NCBI RefSeq assembly: GCF_056746865.1
Contig: NZ_CM163382.1
DNA: 64,000 nt
Direction: 5' to 3' (one strand)
Shown here: piece by piece, positions 34,341-41,103 of the stretch
Layout: every line of letters begins with the position of its first letter
Position numbering within the stretch: position 1 is the stretch's first letter
Notes under the pieces: model-generated
The model's database searches: none
The model's input: only the letters and a program-made list of their open reading frames with translations
Told to the model about the DNA's origin: nothing
Position numbers and translations under genes: made by a program

Positions 34341-35693
34341 GTGTTTATTGGTTTTGATTACGGTACAGCAAACTGTTCAGTGGCGGTCATGCGCGACGGT
34401 AAGCCGCAATTACTGAAAATGGAAAACGACAGCACGCTGCTGCCTTCAATGCTTTGCGCGCCAACGCGTGAAGCGGTAAGCGAATGGCTGTACCGCCATC
34501 ATGATGTTCCGGCAGACGACGATGAAACGCAGGCGCTGCTGCGTCGGGCGATTCGTTATAACCGCGAAGAAGATATCGATGTTACGGCGAAAAGCGTGCA
34601 GTTCGGTCTTTCCTCACTGGCACAGTACATTGATGATCCAGAAGAAGTGTGGTTTGTGAAATCACCAAAATCGTTCCTCGGTGCCAGCGGCTTAAAACCG
34701 CAGCAGGTAGCGCTGTTTGAGGATCTGGTCTGCGCAATGATGTTGCACATTCGCCAGCAGGCGCAGGCACAGCTGCCAGAAGCGATTACTCAGGCGGTGA
34801 TTGGTCGCCCTATCAACTTCCAGGGGCTTGGCGGCGATGAAGCAAACACCCAGGCGCAGGGGATTCTGGAACGCGCGGCGAAGCGTGCCGGGTTTAAGGA
34901 TGTGGTATTCCAGTACGAGCCGGTCGCGGCTGGGCTGGATTACGAAGCCACCTTGCAGGAAGAAAAACGGGTGCTGGTGGTGGATATCGGCGGTGGTACG
35001 ACTGACTGTTCATTGCTGCTGATGGGGCCGCAGTGGCGTTCGCGTCTCGATCGTGAAGCCAGCCTGCTGGGTCACAGTGGTTGCCGTATTGGCGGTAACG
35101 ATCTGGATATCGCGCTGGCGTTTAAAAACCTGATGCCGTTACTGGGCATGGGTGGCGAAACCGAAAAAGGCATCGCCCTGCCTATTCTGCCGTGGTGGAA
35201 TGCGGTTGCCATCAACGACGTTCCTGCACAGAGTGATTTCTACAGTAGTGCCAACGGTCGTCTGCTTAACGACCTGGTACGCGATGCCCGCGAACCGGAA
35301 AAAGTGGCCCTGTTACAGAAAGTCTGGCGTCAGCGTTTAAGCTATCGCCTGGTACGTAGCGCAGAAGAGAGCAAAATTGCGCTTTCAAGCGTAGCGGAAA
35401 CCCGCGCCTCACTGCCGTTTATCAGCGATGAACTGGCTACGCTGATTAGCCAGCAAGGGCTGGAAAGCGCCCTCAGCCAGCCACTGGCGCGGATTCTGGA
35501 ACAGGTGCAACTGGCGCTGGATAACGCCCAGGAAAAACCGGATGTTATCTATCTGACCGGCGGTAGCGCCCGTTCACCGCTGATTAAAAAAGCGCTGACA
35601 GAACAGTTGCCGGGCATTCCGATTGCAGGTGGCGATGACTTTGGCTCCGTCACCGCCGGGCTCGCACGCTGGGCGGAAGTGGTGTTTCGTTAA
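34341..35693 (+). CDS. yegD: Hsp70-family (DnaK-like actin-fold ATPase) protein YegD (450 aa, GTG start)
   Basis: ORF track frame 34278..35693; start placed at GTG 34341 giving (M)FIGFDYGTANCSVAV; Hsp70 phosphate-binding motifs (DIGGGTTD). Confidence 0.85.
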   Translation: MFIGFDYGTANCSVAVMRDGKPQLLKMENDSTLLPSMLCAPTREAVSEWLYRHHDVPADDDETQALLRRAIRYNREEDIDVTAKSVQFGLSSLAQYIDDPEEVWFVKSPKSFLGASGLKPQQVALFEDLVCAMMLHIRQQAQAQLPEAITQAVIGRPINFQGLGGDEANTQAQGILERAAKRAGFKDVVFQYEPVAAGLDYEATLQEEKRVLVVDIGGGTTDCSLLLMGPQWRSRLDREASLLGHSGCRIGGNDLDIALAFKNLMPLLGMGGETEKGIALPILPWWNAVAINDVPAQSDFYSSANGRLLNDLVRDAREPEKVALLQKVWRQRLSYRLVRSAEESKIALSSVAETRASLPFISDELATLISQQGLESALSQPLARILEQVQLALDNAQEKPDVIYLTGGSARSPLIKKALTEQLPGIPIAGGDDFGSVTAGLARWAEVVFR

Positions 35694-35705
35694 TTGAAAA
35701 CTGGT

Positions 35706-37652
35706 TCAGCAACGGCTTAAATCAGCCTGCGCCTGAGCCAGTTTTTCTGCCGCCTGACGTAACGGTTCCATCAACGGCATGGTCCGTGCTGGAGCATGAA
35801 GGCGGAATCGCTGCAACTCTGTCGCACCGACAGTCAACGCCGATTCCAGCCGATGTCGTTTGGCGGCCATTTTTGCCATTACCGCTTGTCTGTCTGCAGG
35901 CGTTACCGCTTCGTTCGGCCTGAAAACAAAACGGCGTTCGCAACTCGCTTTCCAGTCGATAACCGCCTGGGTCAGATGATCACCAAAACCTTTCACTTGC
36001 TTAACGCTCCGTCGGGTAACGTCTGCCGCCGTTTCAATACCAAAGGACCGTAACGCAGCTTTACGCGCAGGGCCAACGCCGGGAATAGAGGCAACATCAA
36101 TAAAAAATCCCTCCAGAAACTTCTGCTTCTGCCGTTCCCTTGCGGTGTCCTGAAGTGCTGCCAGAGCGCGTTTCTCTTCTTCCGGTAACCCGAGCATTTC
36201 GTCCTTCATTTTTTCGAGCATCGTCCGTTTGGCGATAAAACCTTCCAGCCCGCCCAACTGTTGGATCTGGCTGACTAAATGGTCATAGTCCATTTTCGCG
36301 CGATTAAACGCCTCACGACGTTGCTGGATTTCTGCTTTGTACGCTTTGCTTGTCAGGCTGCCAATAATCCAGATAGCCGCCAGCACAGGAACCAAAATAA
36401 TATAACGCGGTTCTGCCTGAAGGCCGCAAAGCAACAGCGATAACGCTGACAGTGCGATCTCAATCAGAATGATGTATTCACGCCGTAACAGGCCTAAAGG
36501 AAGCGGCCTGCCAGCAGCCTGGAAATGATCGGGTAATGGCAGTTGCAATGCTGGTGGTGCTACTGACGCCATCACCATTGCCCAGACTTTCGCCAGCACA
36601 AAATCACCGCCGGTGGTAATGACCTCTTCGCCGAGATCAATAAAATAGATAACGCCTTGATTATCCAGCGCACACCACGGGCAGTCAGTCAAATGACCGG
36701 GGTAAACATGCATTGCCGAAACGGTACATTTCTTTAACTGTTGGCGTAGAGAATCAAGTGCCGCTACCCACGCTTTTGCCGTCGGACGCCCGGTTGCCAC
36801 GCCACTTTCCGTGAATGCCTGCTGAAACATGGCTTCAACATCGCCCGGTAACATCGACAGCGGAATAGATCGTGGCGGCGGTTTTAAACCACGTCGCTGA
36901 TTATCTGACGCGTAGGCATAACGGAAATGGGCAATATCCGTCTCCAGTGCATTCCCCGCATCAGAGATAAGCGGCACACCAGAATAAGGATGCCGCCCAC
37001 CAAACAAGACGTGAAAAATCAGCAACGCAAGGCCAAAATTATCGTGATTTTCTGTGCGTTCAAAGCCGACAAATGATGGCAAGGTTTGCAGCTCTGGCGG
37101 CGTAAAATGCGACACGCCGACTTCGCATAAATGCAGTGTGCCATTGGCGTTAATCTGAAAGGAGTCGCTATCAATCAACACCACTTTGCTGTCACGGCCT
37201 ACCATAAAGCTGTTCTGGTTTACGTCACCCACGACATGCCCGTGCTCGTGAACCGTAGCAAAAGATGAAGCAATATTGCGCGCAACATAGAGTAGAAAAT
37301 CCCACGCACAATGAGGGTAACGTTGGCGACGATGTGCCGGGCTATAGATCATATGAATCGGTTCTTTACCAGAAACTTTTGGCATCATAAAACCGATAAC
37401 CTTTCCGCCTCGTCCACCGTGAAGCGTTGCCTGCGGCCAGGCGACATAATTCAACAATTGCGCGTCAGCTGTCGCAGCCATAAAGGCAAGTTTGTCCTGT
37501 TTTAAGGCGGGTGGCGGCGTGTGATAAATCTTGGCGACGCTATCGACAAACTCCTCGATATCATAAACCGCGCCTTCGCCACCTTTTCCCAGTTCACGCC
37601 CGAGAGTGGTCAATTCACCTGTCGATGTAAATACTTTTATATTTGTCTTCAT
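35706..37652 (-). CDS. yegI: eukaryotic-like Ser/Thr protein kinase YegI (N-terminal kinase domain, central hydrophobic segments, C-terminal helix-hairpin-helix-like repeats; 648 aa)
   Basis: ORF track 648 aa; Gly-rich loop GKGGEGAVY, catalytic-loop-like HVVGDVNQNS, DFG-like IDSDSF; C-terminal IPGVGPARKAAL and VKGFGDHL. Confidence 0.9.
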   Translation of the reverse strand: MKTNIKVFTSTGELTTLGRELGKGGEGAVYDIEEFVDSVAKIYHTPPPALKQDKLAFMAATADAQLLNYVAWPQATLHGGRGGKVIGFMMPKVSGKEPIHMIYSPAHRRQRYPHCAWDFLLYVARNIASSFATVHEHGHVVGDVNQNSFMVGRDSKVVLIDSDSFQINANGTLHLCEVGVSHFTPPELQTLPSFVGFERTENHDNFGLALLIFHVLFGGRHPYSGVPLISDAGNALETDIAHFRYAYASDNQRRGLKPPPRSIPLSMLPGDVEAMFQQAFTESGVATGRPTAKAWVAALDSLRQQLKKCTVSAMHVYPGHLTDCPWCALDNQGVIYFIDLGEEVITTGGDFVLAKVWAMVMASVAPPALQLPLPDHFQAAGRPLPLGLLRREYIILIEIALSALSLLLCGLQAEPRYIILVPVLAAIWIIGSLTSKAYKAEIQQRREAFNRAKMDYDHLVSQIQQLGGLEGFIAKRTMLEKMKDEMLGLPEEEKRALAALQDTARERQKQKFLEGFFIDVASIPGVGPARKAALRSFGIETAADVTRRSVKQVKGFGDHLTQAVIDWKASCERRFVFRPNEAVTPADRQAVMAKMAAKRHRLESALTVGATELQRFRLHAPARTMPLMEPLRQAAEKLAQAQADLSRC

Positions 37653-37852
37653 AATGTTTTAAGGGCAGTCATATTATATTTTAATGAATAATAACACTGC
37701 CCATTATAATTATTTCCATATTGGAAGAGTCCCACTCAAGAATAAAAATGATAATGCAATTTCATCAGGATACAATTCAACTCCAACCTGATAATGATTC
37801 ACTTCCACAGATTTTTTGCTAACTTTTACTACACAGGGATTCTGGAAAAAAG

Positions 37853-38314
37853 ATGAAAAAGATATTACTTATGTTGAGTCTGCTATTTTTTACTACCGCG
37901 GGCTTTAGTGAAGTTTCGGATACGTTAGTGACGGGAGGTTATGATAAACAAGCGATGTCTGACGCCATTCAACATGCGCGGAAAGAAACCGATCAATTCA
38001 TCGAAATTATGAATAAAAAAGATGCCGATACTTTCGCGGTCAAAGCCCCGATAACCGATCACGGAAGAACAGAGCATTTCTGGCTTACGGATGTCACTTA
38101 TTCTAACGGCATGTTTATTGGCGTAATAAGCAATGACCCTGGTATTGTTACAAACGTAGAATATGGTCAGGAGTGGAAAATCAAGAAAGAAGATATTTCA
38201 GACTGGATGTATACGCGCGGGGATAAAATTTACGGCGGTTATACCATTGTTCCTTTATTGGTCACCTATCCAAAAGAAGAAGCCGACGAGCTAAGAGCAA
38301 AATTAGTTCGCTAA
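37853..38314 (+). CDS. yegJ: secreted/periplasmic protein YegJ (DUF2314-type, signal peptide, 153 aa)
   Basis: ORF track 153 aa; signal peptide MKKILLMLSLLFFTTAGFS. Confidence 0.85.
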   Translation: MKKILLMLSLLFFTTAGFSEVSDTLVTGGYDKQAMSDAIQHARKETDQFIEIMNKKDADTFAVKAPITDHGRTEHFWLTDVTYSNGMFIGVISNDPGIVTNVEYGQEWKIKKEDISDWMYTRGDKIYGGYTIVPLLVTYPKEEADELRAKLVR

Positions 38315-38378
38315 CCAGCCATTATATTAATTGCTTAAACTGGCGGTTGAACTGTTGTCTTCAACCGCCATGCGATGT

Positions 38379-39140
38379 TCATTCTGTCCACAGCGCCAGT
38401 GCCAACGTTTTATCATCATCGGTACGCTCGTTTACCGCCGGGCCGGACAAAAACTGCTTTAACAATTCAGGTAATAAATCGAGTTGTTCCTGCGTTGCTG
38501 ACGCCAGCCCATTGAAAAACGGGGTAAAGAAAGGCACATGGGGAGAATTATCCAGCATATTTAACGCCAGCCGCTGGATACCATCCGTAAATGCTGCAAC
38601 TTTGTGCGCACGCTCAGTGCTGGTGAAAGTTTCCAGTCTGGAAACCGCATCTTCATCGGTAATGAAGTGCGTCATGTTGGCATATTCACCCACCATCGGC
38701 GTGAGCGGCAGTTGCAGACCGTGCCCCAAATCTACCACCACGCCGCCATCGCCAATCTGCATAATCAAGGTGCCGTCAGGCGATGAAATCAGTCCCAGAA
38801 ATGTGCAGGCAAAATCGCGAACCGCTAATTCTTTGGCTTCCGCCTCGGCAAAAAGTCGCTGACGAATGGTCAGCACAATATCCGTGGCGAGGACATCATT
38901 AAGCCCCAATTCCCCGCCCTGCACTTTTTGCGACATATAAGCCATCGCTTCATTGACGGCGAGCATCGCGCCTTCGCCACCCTGCGAGACACTGCCTGCG
39001 CCATCAGCGACAAATACCGACAATAATGGCTGCTGGTCATTTAACCAGGCAACCTGCATCTGGCAGGCATCCTGGCAAGGCAAGTCCGCGCTGATGTGCG
39101 ACGTTCCAACGGTTGATGCATAGACCAGACGCCAGCTCAC
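38379..39140 (-). CDS. yegK: PP2C-family Ser/Thr protein phosphatase YegK/PphC (253 aa)
   Basis: ORF track 253 aa; PP2C-like N-terminus ([20 protein letters not shown]). Confidence 0.9.
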
Positions 39141-39796
39141 ACTGACGTCCAGCCTTTTGGCGCTTCCAGCACAACTTCCGTTCCCGGCGTGGAGCGGGAA
39201 ACCGAACGCAGCGAACTGGATAACCAGCTAAACAGTTCACGGAATTGTAATCCCTGCAGTGGCAAAGGCTGACGAACGCTGATTTGTGCCAAAGTCTTCA
39301 TATCCGCCCCCTGAACACCGATGGAAAAGAAGGCAAACTTCTTATCTTCTTCCCCCTGAAACACTTTGTTGGCGGCAGCCTGCCACTCATCGGTTGGTGC
39401 GCCATCAGTGATCAGGAAAATCCACGGACGATAATAGGAAATACCATTGGCGCGATACTCACGTTTGCGCTCCTCAACCATATCCAGGGCTTTGGTAATG
39501 GCGGCCCCCATTGGTGTATCGCCTTGGGCAAACAGGATGGGCGGGAAAAAATTAGCGGCGCTGGTAAAGGGTTGTTCCACATGCACCGGGCCGAACGTCA
39601 CAATGCCGAGTTCCACTCTTTTTAAGGCCAGCGAATCGGCAAGCAGCTCATCGCGAAAGGTAACCAATCCGGCGTTAAGTTCATTAATAGGTCTACCGTT
39701 CATAGAACCAGAAACATCCAGCAGCAAAATGCAGGGGCAACGTGGTTCCGGGTTACTGGCAAAATCGCTGGTGGCAAACATGATTTGTTCGCTCAT
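39137..39796 (-). CDS. yegL: von Willebrand factor A (vWA) domain protein YegL (TerY-like, 219 aa)
   Basis: ORF track 219 aa; MIDAS motif DVSGSM; 4-nt overlap with yegK. Confidence 0.9.
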
Positions 39797-39976
39797 AAGA
39801 AATCCTTTCTTAGAGAATTATTGAGGTCCGGTATCATACCGATTGCAATAATGAAATAAGAGCAAACGAAGAAACTTTCAGAATTAGGCCCGGCGGCGCA
39901 GAAAATTTTGCTATTCGCCTCGCAAGAACGGAGAGCCGTCGATTGACACTAAGGGCGGAGTGACATAATTTCAGGA

Positions 39977-40120
39977 GTGAGGGTTAGGGAGAGGTTTCCC
40001 CCTCCCCCTGGTGTTCTTAGTAAGCCTGGAAGCTAATCACTAAGAGTATCACCAGTATGATGACGTGCTTCATCATAACCCTTTCCTTATTAAAAGCCCT
40101 CTTCTCCGGGAGAGGGTTTC
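39977..40120 (+). ncRNA. sibA: Sib-family antisense sRNA (antitoxin of ibs copy 1); ends approximate
   Basis: Plus-strand TTGACA (39943-39948) with downstream -10-like cataat; GC hairpin gccctcttctccgggagagggt + T-run at ~40096-40120; fully covers the ibs ORF on the opposite strand. Confidence 0.5.
40017..40076 (-). CDS. ibsA: type I toxin Ibs family, 19 aa: MMKHVIILVILLVISFQAY
   Basis: Reverse complement of 40017-40076 translated by hand; hydrophobic Ibs-type peptide; too short for the ORF track. Confidence 0.8.
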   Translation of the reverse strand: MMKHVIILVILLVISFQAY

Positions 40121-40312
40121 CCGTTTCAGCGTCCCGCTGAAATCGTCGGCTTACCTCCTTTCGCCCTGAATGCAGTCTATCGCTAACGCGTGAACAAAAT
40201 AGTTTCCTCTGTGATTATTGCGTAACGACTCGCAAAGAATATTTGCTGGCAGGATCGCAGACTGCAAAGCCTGCAGATTGACAATCTTATCGTGAAGGCA
40301 TACTTTCAGGAG

Positions 40313-40446
40313 TGAGGGTAGAGCGGGGTTTCCCCCGCCCTGGTAGTCTTAGTATGCTGGGTAGCTAATCACTAAGAGCACCACGATGATGAGTATCTTC
40401 ATCATGACCCTTTCCTTATTTAAGGCCCCTTCCTCGGGAGGGGCTT
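40313..40446 (+). ncRNA. Sib-family antisense sRNA (copy 2); ends approximate
   Basis: TTGACA at 40278-40283, 17-nt spacer, -10-like tacttt; terminator hairpin ggccccttcctcgggaggggc + ttt at 40423-40446. Confidence 0.5.
40348..40404 (-). CDS. type I toxin Ibs family, 18 aa: MMKILIIVVLLVISYPAY
   Basis: Hand translation of reverse complement; IbsB-like. Confidence 0.75.
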
Positions 40447-40640
40447 TCCCGTTTCAGCGTCCCGCTAAAATCGTCGGCTTACCTCCTTTCGCCCTGAATG
40501 CAGTCTATCGCTAACGCGTGAACAAAATAGTTTCCTCTGTGATTATTGCGTAACGACTCGCAAAGAATATTTGCTGGCAGGATCGCAGACTGCAAAGCCT
40601 GCAGATTGACAATCTTATCGTGAAGGCATACTTTCAGGAG

Positions 40641-40775
40641 TGAGGGTAGAGCGGGGGTTCCCCCGCCCTGGTAGTCTTAGTAAGCCGGGAAGCTTATGAC
40701 TAAGAGCACCACGATGATGATCCACTTCATCATGACCCTTTCCTTATTTAAGGCCCCTTCCTCGGGAGGGGCTTT
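40641..40775 (+). ncRNA. Sib-family antisense sRNA (copy 3); ends approximate
   Basis: Same promoter and terminator architecture as copy 2 (TTGACA 40606-40611; hairpin ~40752-40775). Confidence 0.5.
40677..40733 (-). CDS. type I toxin Ibs family, 18 aa: MMKWIIIVVLLVISFPAY
   Basis: Hand translation of reverse complement; IbsB-like. Confidence 0.75.
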   Translation of the reverse strand: MMKWIIIVVLLVISFPAY

Positions 40776-40968
40776 CCCGTTTCAGCGTCCCGCTGAAATC
40801 ATCGGCTTACCTCCTTTCGCCCTGAATGCAGTCTATCGCTGACTTGCGGATAAAATAGTTTCACATGTGATTATTGTGTAACGTCTCGCAAAGAATATTT
40901 GCTGGCAGGATCGCAGACTGCAAAGCCTGCAGATTGACAATCTTATCGTGAAGGCATACTTTCAGGAG

Positions 40969-41103
40969 TGAGGGTAGAGCGGGGTTTCCCCCGCCCTGGT
41001 AGTCTTAGTATGCTGGGTAGCTAATCACTAAGAGCACCACGATGATGAGTAGCTTCATCATGACCCTTTCCTTATTTAAGGCCCCTTCCTCGGGAGGGGC
41101 TTT
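40969..41103 (+). ncRNA. Sib-family antisense sRNA (copy 4); ends approximate
   Basis: Same architecture (TTGACA 40934-40939; hairpin ~41080-41103). Confidence 0.5.
41005..41061 (-). CDS. type I toxin Ibs family, 18 aa: MMKLLIIVVLLVISYPAY
   Basis: Hand translation of reverse complement; IbsB-like. Confidence 0.75.
   Translation of the reverse strand: MMKLLIIVVLLVISYPAY

Follow-up and report, generated by a model that had tools for sequence, protein, structure and literature searches.

The yegL-pphC-yegI cassette of Escherichia coli: a TerY-P-type phosphorylation triad with a distinct kinase architecture

The genes yegL, pphC (also called yegK) and yegI of Escherichia coli encode a von Willebrand factor A (vWA) protein, a PP2C-family phosphatase and a Hanks-type Ser/Thr kinase, and together they constitute a TerY-P-type phosphorylation triad whose kinase has an architecture of its own. 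The copy analysed here lies at positions 35706-39796, on the minus strand, of a 64,000-nt stretch of contig NZ_CM163382.1 (assembly GCF_056746865.1), which is referred to as the window and whose numbering is used below (Table 1). The DNA is chromosomal and from E. coli: with 9 kb around the cassette as query, several complete genomes matched at 100% identity, and on these identical chromosomes the RefSeq gene run reads dgcE, alkA, yegD, yegI, yegJ, pphC, yegL, four ibs toxin genes and mdtA. An initial annotation, made from the sequence alone, had described the three genes as split by a divergent, secreted yegJ, with a 4-nt overlap of yegL and yegK and with an Hsp70-like yegD and the ibs/sib array as flanks, and this layout was borne out in full. 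The open reading frame (ORF) coordinates match and agree with RefSeq, the GTG start of pphC overlaps the yegL stop as GTGA when read from the sequence, and plus-strand yegJ lies between the minus-strand pphC and yegI, its product having a signal-peptide-like N-terminus and matching Pfam DUF2314 at 9e-25. YegD is an Hsp70-like protein of the PRK11678 family (NCBIfam NF008673, 808 bits), and four Sib RNAs stand beside the four ibs genes on the other side.

Table 1. Positions of the cassette, its domains and the neighbouring features, in the window and in the other loci compared
Feature	Sequence	Position	Strand	Remarks
yegL	window	39137-39796	-	219 aa; stand-alone cytoplasmic TerY-like vWA protein; first gene of the cassette
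YegL MIDAS DxSxS motif	window	39704-39718	-	D27-V-S29-G-S31; completed by T94 and D131
pphC (yegK)	window	38379-39140	-	253 aa; PP2C-family Ser/Thr phosphatase
yegJ	window	37853-38314	+	153 aa; DUF2314
yegJ segment	window	37653-38378	+	low-GC replacement between pphC and yegI
yegI	window	35706-37652	-	648 aa; membrane-anchored atypical Hanks-type Ser/Thr kinase
YegI kinase domain	window	36738-37652	-	aa 1-305; P-loop G22-G27, K41, D143/N145, D161-S-D163-S164 replacing DFG
Zinc-knuckle/zinc-ribbon-like element	window	36648-36737	-	C309, H315, C324, C327; directly after the kinase domain
Transmembrane hairpin	window	36333-36482	-	~aa 392-440; from hydrophobicity, AF2 helices and published topology
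(HhH)2 module	window	35928-36107	-	hairpins IPGVGPARKAAL and VKGFGDHLTQAV
yegD	window	34341-35693		Hsp70-like
Four Sib RNAs	window	39943-41076		Rfam; beside four annotated ibs toxin genes
yegJ region, compared	L010	5938-5941		
yegJ region, compared	L011	6147-6608		
yegJ region, compared	L009	4248-4945		IS1 in place of yegJ
69-aa basic ORF	L002	5719-5928		
69-aa basic ORF	L007	6075-6284		
69-aa basic ORF	L008	5700-5912		
69-aa basic ORF	L016	4198-4404		
69-aa basic ORF	L020	11954-12151		
DUF4236 protein	L008	1962-3182		
DUF4236 protein	L095	11507-12616		
DUF4236 protein	L096	6294-7376		
DUF4236 protein	L076	11925-13037		
Region of secreted Cys-repeat and J-domain proteins	L013	7865-10317		convergent with the kinase gene

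YegL matches the Pfam families VWA at 2e-9 and VWA_2 at 4e-7 and carries the sequence DVSGSM at residues 27-32. The five residues of its metal-ion-dependent adhesion site (MIDAS), D27, S29, S31, T94 and D131, are each at least 97% conserved among 81 sequences and are invariant in alignment A2. The AlphaFold2 (AF2) model of the protein, with a predicted local distance difference test score (pLDDT) of 86, adopts a vWA fold and matches the vWF-A3, ANTXR and integrin I folds. Outside the triads, its nearest relatives on plasmids are the TerY and 'TerY-C' proteins of ter operons, at about 28% identity with E-values from 1e-10 to 1e-16. The 81 sequences also share a conserved N-terminal motif and a conserved Ser-rich C-terminal segment, F.WLS.S...S.S.PG...L..P.GW, which in the AF2 model comprises the last vWA helix (185-200) and a less confident tail. 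The second protein, PphC, matches Pfam PP2C_2 (PF13672) at 1.3e-52 with its metal-binding aspartates conserved (D46-G47, D131-G132, D186-G187 and D242-D243), and according to published biochemistry it is an Mn-dependent phosphatase that dephosphorylates YegI-P.

The kinase is more divergent in sequence. E. coli YegI matched no Pkinase profile (PF00069) in Pfam up to E 10, its sole match there being HHH_5 at 7.6e-4 over residues 517-553; a sequence search of the PDB returned marginal matches at best, for example NleH1 at E 0.13, and an NCBIfam scan found nothing specific for YegL, PphC, YegI or YegJ, with weak generic kinase-domain matches for YegI. The AF2 model of YegI, with a mean pLDDT of 93.8 and a predicted template modelling score (pTM) of 0.82, matched the kinase domains of PknA, PknB, BRAF and Aurora in a Foldseek search of the PDB, at probability 1.0 and target-normalised TM-scores of 0.63-0.73, and relatives about 40% identical over the kinase domain match PF00069 at 2e-8 to 2e-9. 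In alignment A1, which holds 60 YegI relatives, the P-loop glycines including G24 are invariant, as are E26, K41, D143, N145, D161, D163 and S164. The motifs themselves are atypical, VGD standing where HRD is expected and DSD where DFG is expected, so that the canonical HRD and DFG and the Pkinase-profile match are absent from E. coli YegI while the bilobal eukaryotic protein kinase (ePK) fold and the catalytic residues are present. Published work describes YegI as an active, Mn2+-preferring Ser/Thr kinase that autophosphorylates on activation-loop serines, that requires the DSD loop replacing DFG, and that is inactive as the K39D or D141N mutant (REL606 numbering, 2 lower than here, where these residues are K41 and D143). 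The published PhoA-LacZ topology places it in the inner membrane as a two-pass protein with both termini cytoplasmic and without a periplasmic sensor domain. The domain assignments of the initial annotation, namely a vWA protein with an intact MIDAS, a PP2C phosphatase and a membrane-associated Hanks-type kinase, were therefore upheld by Pfam for YegL and PphC and, where the Pfam Pkinase profile failed for YegI, by AF2 and Foldseek, by the PF00069 matches of its relatives and by the published activities and topology.

Just after the kinase domain come four residues, C309, H315, C324 and C327, that all 60 sequences share, down to 33% identity, and AF2 builds around them a beta-hairpin (306-318) followed by a helix (325-331); this CHCC element is a putative zinc knuckle or ribbon and would bind zinc. 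Hydrophobic maxima at about residues 393 and 417 and AF2 helices at 391-411 and 417-467 mark the transmembrane hairpin, whose sequence is poorly conserved (12%) yet which is kept as a feature across the relatives. It is followed by a coiled coil, a double helix-hairpin-helix module, (HhH)2, and a long terminal helix, so that the C-terminal half is all-helical and contains no oligonucleotide/oligosaccharide-binding (OB) fold. The (HhH)2 module is the best-conserved segment of YegI, with a mean identity of 0.52 against 0.49 for the kinase domain, and G527, S536, G538, T541, D544, G555 and G557 are nearly invariant in A1; the module is predicted to bind DNA. Some kinases of the YegI family (P0123, P0163, P0169, P0215 and P0222) keep the kinase and HhH parts and add long C-terminal extensions, among them SH3, LprI-like and Cys-rich repeats. 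The family thus swaps appendages, since these extensions differ while the kinase and HhH parts are kept.

Relatives of YegI are encoded in at least 561 genomes of a one-genome-per-species scan. Eighty loci were kept, 74 of them with complete upstream DNA, and the latter were used for the gene-order and identity counts. The order vWA, PP2C, kinase on one strand was found in all 74 complete loci and in six further loci from protein look-ups, and the same cassette in the same order is carried by plasmids or megaplasmids of Pseudomonas, Cupriavidus and Ralstonia. The 80 loci cover Beta-, Gamma- and Alphaproteobacteria, Actinobacteria, Acidobacteria, Planctomycetes, Desulfobacterota, Cyanobacteria, Firmicutes and about ten Methanoregula. 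At the level of 50% clusters, the YegI family has 3246 representatives with E ≤ 1e-30, mostly of the same architecture of about 645 aa. Both yegD and yegJ were considered as members of the cassette and rejected, yegJ occurring in none of the 80 loci and yegD at the E. coli locus alone, and clustering of the flanking ORFs of 87 loci found no gene family common beyond related genomes, only clade-restricted neighbours, the commonest being a TetR regulator of 206 aa downstream of the triad in a Competibacteraceae clade. The unit is accordingly exactly three genes, a self-contained cassette that moves horizontally. In the 74 triads, the median identity to the E. coli proteins is 62.7% for YegL (minimum 57.7%), 39.3% for PphC and 37.8% for YegI, and YegL is the most conserved of the three proteins in every one of these loci; the most constrained partner is, unexpectedly, the non-enzymatic one. 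About ten assemblies of Methanoregula or Methanomicrobiales contain complete triads (L040, L047, L048, L052, L054, L059, L070, L071, L073 and L082), in which YegL is still 60-63% identical to that of E. coli; these archaeal triads imply transfer between bacteria and archaea.

The TerY-P system, according to the definition quoted in PMC11090510, consists of a TerY-like vWA protein, a PP2C phosphatase and a Ser/Thr kinase (STK) that carries a fused zinc ribbon, and the same source relates a proposal that such triads work as a metal-sensing phosphorylation switch connected with DNA-processing systems. All of the quoted features are present in the Yeg cassette: a TerY-like vWA protein with its MIDAS, an adjacent PP2C phosphatase, a Ser/Thr kinase, a zinc element and a contiguous operon, the CHCC element of YegI matching the 'STK fused to a zinc ribbon'. 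Contiguity holds in the 74 relatives and in yegJ-less E. coli, and in this window it is broken by the divergent yegJ. The TerY-P triad named by the initial annotation is thus matched in domain set and order, and TerY is furthermore the nearest non-triad plasmid relative of YegL. In both triads three genes lie side by side and encode a TerY-like vWA protein whose MIDAS is complete, a phosphatase of the PP2C family and a kinase directly followed by a zinc element, and both are associated with DNA-restriction or DNA-processing genes in other genomes. Unlike the TerY-P kinase as quoted, YegI continues past the zinc knuckle into the transmembrane hairpin, the coiled coil and (HhH)2, and the Yeg cassette is stand-alone, without McrBC, CoCoNuT or helicase partners, and belongs to the core chromosome in E. 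coli. When the PADLOC models were compared with the three proteins, the TerY model PDLC02224 gave a partial match to YegL at E 0.013 (13 bits), no family matched PphC up to E 10, and YegI received generic kinase-domain matches to PD-T4-6 and MkoA at 1e-4 or weaker and none to a TerY-P kinase model. The Yeg triad is therefore best regarded as a distinct architectural variant of TerY-P, because it agrees with the quoted definition and lacks both the PADLOC profiles and the OB fold.

Two related triads have been reported to act against phages. A TerY-P-like kinase-OB module is described in PMC11090510 as a stand-alone anti-phage system active on T7-like phages (Gao et al. 2020), and as described there it shares with the Yeg triad the three enzyme and adaptor classes and the stand-alone three-gene form. 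Neither PADLOC nor DefenseFinder recognised a TerY-P variant of P. aeruginosa that was detected through inspection of defence neighbourhoods and that protects against Autographiviridae without collapse of the culture (Costa et al., Sci Adv 2024); it likewise consists of three genes carrying the same set of functional domains. The published primers of this variant had no match in the metagenome contigs or plasmids scanned. The Yeg triad may also be compared with the Hanks kinase/PP2C pairs PknB-PstP and PrkC-PrpC and with the abortive-infection kinase Stk2, which likewise have an ePK fold and a neighbouring PP2C phosphatase that dephosphorylates the kinase. In contrast to these systems, YegI has no PASTA-like extracytoplasmic sensor, carries VGD and DSD motifs and falls below detection by Pfam Pkinase, and the Yeg type has an obligatory vWA partner and, on the kinase, a predicted cytoplasmic DNA-binding appendage.

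Within E. coli, yegI was found in 5410 of 5426 complete genomes (99.7%), at 95-99% identity and at one locus, and in full length in 5401 of the 5426. Pairwise ratios of nonsynonymous to synonymous substitution rates (dN/dS) are 0.04-0.07 for yegL, 0.10-0.19 for pphC and 0.08-0.11 for yegI, against 0.02-0.07 for yegD. The triad genes are hence maintained and not decaying, since these values are low and comparable to those of yegD, and in E. coli the cassette is a fixed part of the core genome that selection maintains and that is normally almost silent. The yegJ segment is a strain polymorphism, being present in 1924 of the 5426 genomes (about 35%). Its guanine-plus-cytosine (GC) content is 33-42%, against about 52% for the triad, and it takes the place of the final two codons of pphC and of the first ~16 of yegI, so that the N-terminus of YegI reads MKTNIKVFTSTGELTTLGRELG in yegJ-carrying and MKPTLYTATGECVTPGRELG in yegJ-less strains. 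In yegJ-less E. coli, pphC and yegI are contiguous and overlap by ATGA (4 nt); in about one third of the strains, including this one, yegI is uncoupled from yegL-pphC by yegJ. Between two diverged yegJ-carrying lineages the dN/dS of yegI is still 0.078, from which it follows that the split is old and tolerated.

The insert brings a new start to yegI, and the ~16 new N-terminal codons resemble the original ones, a likeness suggestive of recombination with a related locus. In most of the other genomes with yegJ, identity to the copy of the window is only 90-95%, so at least two yegJ alleles exist. In one strain of the yegJ lineage, L009, an IS1 replaces yegJ between pphC and yegI. Together with yegD and the ibs/sib array, yegJ is an E. 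coli-specific neighbour outside the cassette. The yegD ORF can be opened at a start codon, TTG, that lies 63 nt further upstream than the annotated one (34278 versus 34341), and the annotated YegD of 450 aa is favoured because the NCBIfam profile aligns from residue 22 of the longer ORF. Four tandem Sib/ibs units lie here and two at the same position in strains L009, L010 and L011, so that this type I toxin-antitoxin array by yegL varies in copy number.

Some further neighbours recur at loci of the relatives. A very basic ORF of 69 aa (MKFGMRKPSLKK...), which the window lacks, is 79-87% identical across five Betaproteobacterial loci; in each of them it abuts the triad, on its upstream side at four loci and on its downstream side at the fifth, and it is often accompanied by an SNase-family nuclease with a signal peptide (L002, L008, L015 and L026); it may be a clade-specific accessory. 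A DUF4236 protein of about 360-400 aa lies within about 2 kb of the triad in three differing loci and at about 3.4 kb in L008. In four Burkholderiaceae loci (L013, L041, L045 and L046), a secreted Cys-repeat protein is encoded convergently, directly 3' of the kinase gene, and a J-domain protein about 1 kb downstream, where in E. coli the equivalent place is filled by Hsp70-like yegD; this parallel could be a coincidence or a recurring chaperone link. The families PHROGs 28389, 37072 and 37888 are near-identical to YegL, PphC and YegI (up to 1505 bits). They were not taken to show a phage origin of the genes, as these families probably represent chromosomal genes swept into prophage predictions; the INPHARED phage genomes hold no YegI homologue except one 27% kinase-only match, and no deposited phage carries the triad. 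The large helicase beside the triad of P. citronellolis is a RecQ/UvrD fusion and neither MkoA nor DruE, which might have tied this locus to the study of the P. aeruginosa variant.

The gene neighbourhoods of the closer relatives bear on the function of the family. Among 17 loci whose YegI is at least 42% identical, 11 have hallmark defence genes within about 9 kb, a count from partial sampling with no matched background. They comprise BrxR, JetB, a ScoMcrA-like protein and an SLFN-type helicase (L002); AbiH and a KAP NTPase at a locus adjoining a Tn7-like element (L003); GmrSD and type I restriction-modification (RM) (L004); type I RM and Mrr (L007); JetC (1340 bits) and a WYL protein (L015); Avs2 (2926 bits) (L017); a type I restriction endonuclease (L020); adjacent GajA and GajB, that is Gabija (L031); KwaA, a type IIG enzyme and a giant helicase (L094); BrxR, Wadjet and a ubiquitin-like module (L095); and a ScoMcrA-like protein with PLD (L096). 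At L006, L008, L022, L024, L027 and L097 the search for defence genes was negative or unclear, L006 sitting among housekeeping genes. Based on these defence neighbours, on the unity of the cassette, on the anti-phage activity of related triads and on the low dN/dS, the family is suggested, as the likeliest of the readings considered, to serve in defence or invader-sensing, against phage or other invading DNA, a reading to which a probability of roughly 0.45 is assigned.

Several observations weigh against such a role. In many of the loci the largest neighbours alone were scanned, so the 11 of 17 is suggestive and not a statistical test, and the sampled large neighbours of distant relatives (34-40% identity) are mostly not defence genes. 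In E. coli itself the neighbours of the locus are alkA, yegD and mdtA, with no defence genes; it is a core, syntenic cluster and not a defence island, whereas most defence systems are accessory. The PADLOC-DB 2.0 models do not recognise the triad, and the detector run on the window recommended by the initial annotation would probably return nothing. The kinase of the validated TerY-P system, as described in PMC11090510, is fused to an OB fold, while YegI has a transmembrane-(HhH)2 arrangement, and the triad contains no effector domain. No P. aeruginosa protein is found among the close YegI relatives, so that neither this search nor that with the primers placed the P. aeruginosa variant in the Yeg family. 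Transcription of the triad is, according to the literature, barely detectable in laboratory conditions. As the initial annotation had stated, no physiological role in E. coli was found in the literature searched, which gives no substrate, trigger or phenotype, and no paper there ties yegLKI to phage defence or reports a phage phenotype. Furthermore, the K-12 and B laboratory strains carry the triad and yet plate the classical coliphages.

If the family does sense invading DNA, a sequence of events can be sketched. In the resting cell PphC would keep YegI off, and (HhH)2 together with the zinc knuckle would bring the membrane-bound kinase into contact with DNA at the membrane. Through its MIDAS, YegL would capture a peptide ligand, either the trigger or a target, and its conserved Ser-rich helix and tail at the C-terminus might become phosphorylated. 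The trigger would be DNA contact through (HhH)2, ligand capture by the YegL MIDAS, or both; it would tip the balance between kinase and phosphatase, and YegI would then phosphorylate targets so as to disturb DNA transactions. A link to DNA is drawn because (HhH)2 is the best-conserved segment of YegI and because, in a genome-wide E. coli screen, overproduced YegL (strong) and YegI (at least 5-fold) scored as DNA-damage-up.

An alternative that is possible, if on the doubtful side, is that the triad is an endogenous stress switch with no phage role, which would sense either a divalent metal or a stress that is metal-linked, oxidative or due to DNA damage, and would in turn tune host proteins through Ser/Thr phosphorylation. 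It agrees with the relationship of YegL to TerY of tellurite-resistance operons and the perfectly conserved metal site, with the Mn2+ dependence of both YegI and PphC in the literature, and with the metal-sensing hypothesis for TerY-P as quoted in PMC11090510. The core, syntenic position under purifying selection in E. coli, the weak expression of yegI seen in stationary phase, the recurrence of yegI mutations in long-term evolution lines (both from the literature), and the placement of several relatives among housekeeping genes (L006 and distant loci) point the same way. But the patchy distribution over bacteria and archaea, at 34-63% identity and partly on plasmids, indicates an accessory cassette that is often transferred horizontally, and Wadjet, Gabija, Avs, RM and BrxR are repeated neighbours. 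The best-conserved appendage of the kinase is, by prediction, of a nucleic-acid-binding and not a small-ligand type, the kinase is without a periplasmic sensor domain, and the literature searched contains no metal or stress phenotype.

It is quite unlikely that the triad forms an E. coli-specific module with the local YegD (and YegJ), for example a chaperone-linked or RNase E-linked circuit of envelope or RNA stress. The stop codons of the convergent yegD and yegI are 12 bp apart (35693-35706), and the pair is a predicted excludon in E. coli according to the literature; no terminator-like site was seen in the gap by a promoter/terminator scan that itself performed at chance level and has no bearing on yegI transcription. 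The literature also reports that overexpressed yegJ induces yegD and that YegJ binds the N-terminal half of RNase E in a two-hybrid assay, and the J-domain gene in the place equivalent to yegD in the four Burkholderiaceae loci would fit a chaperone connection. Against this, yegD accompanies the triad in E. coli alone and yegJ in none of the 80 loci, yegJ is a low-GC insert missing from about 65% of E. coli genomes, no neighbour is conserved family-wide, and the J-domain link comes from a single clade. Least probable is that the E. coli copy is an old, silent, irrelevant and decaying leftover, of whose decay the insertions of yegJ and IS1 would be the first signs. In its favour, expression cannot be detected robustly, laboratory evolution repeatedly yields mutations, yegJ divides the operon in 35% of genomes and one strain carries IS1 between pphC and yegI. 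But purifying selection strongly disfavours this reading, dN/dS lying at 0.04-0.19 across the three genes, a level as low as that of yegD, and at 0.078 for yegI between yegJ lineages; full-length yegI is also present in nearly all genomes, the catalytic, MIDAS and HhH residues are intact, and the purified proteins are active in published work.

The reading of the family as a defence or invader-sensing system can be extended, tentatively and with odds clearly against the whole, to a more specific proposal. The Yeg-type triad would be a widespread subtype of TerY-P immunity, encoded in at least 561 species-level genomes and missed by the detectors, in which a kinase anchored in the inner membrane reads foreign DNA there and signals by phosphorylation without a built-in nuclease or other effector, YegL serves as trigger-binding or substrate partner, and the E. 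coli copy is a core innate-immunity module.

The element itself is not new, since databases and two biochemical papers already cover much of it. New here are the unity of the cassette, the conservation of YegL, the zinc, transmembrane and (HhH)2 anatomy of YegI, the defence neighbours, the core status of the triad in E. coli and the selection on it, and the miss by PADLOC. The comparative results narrow the focus to the three-gene unit, to which yegD and yegJ do not belong, and single out the MIDAS and Ser-rich tail of YegL and the zinc knuckle and (HhH)2 of YegI. E. coli has very few Ser/Thr kinases, and for the YegI-PphC kinase-phosphatase pair the remaining question is that of substrate, trigger and phenotype in this organism, which is directly testable in the K-12 and B strains, as these differ naturally by the yegJ split. 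In conclusion, should the triad be a switch for defence or invader-sensing, the mode of action of such a three-gene system, in which no effector domain is evident, would be informative, and current detectors would be missing a family of hundreds of species that is present in essentially every E. coli.

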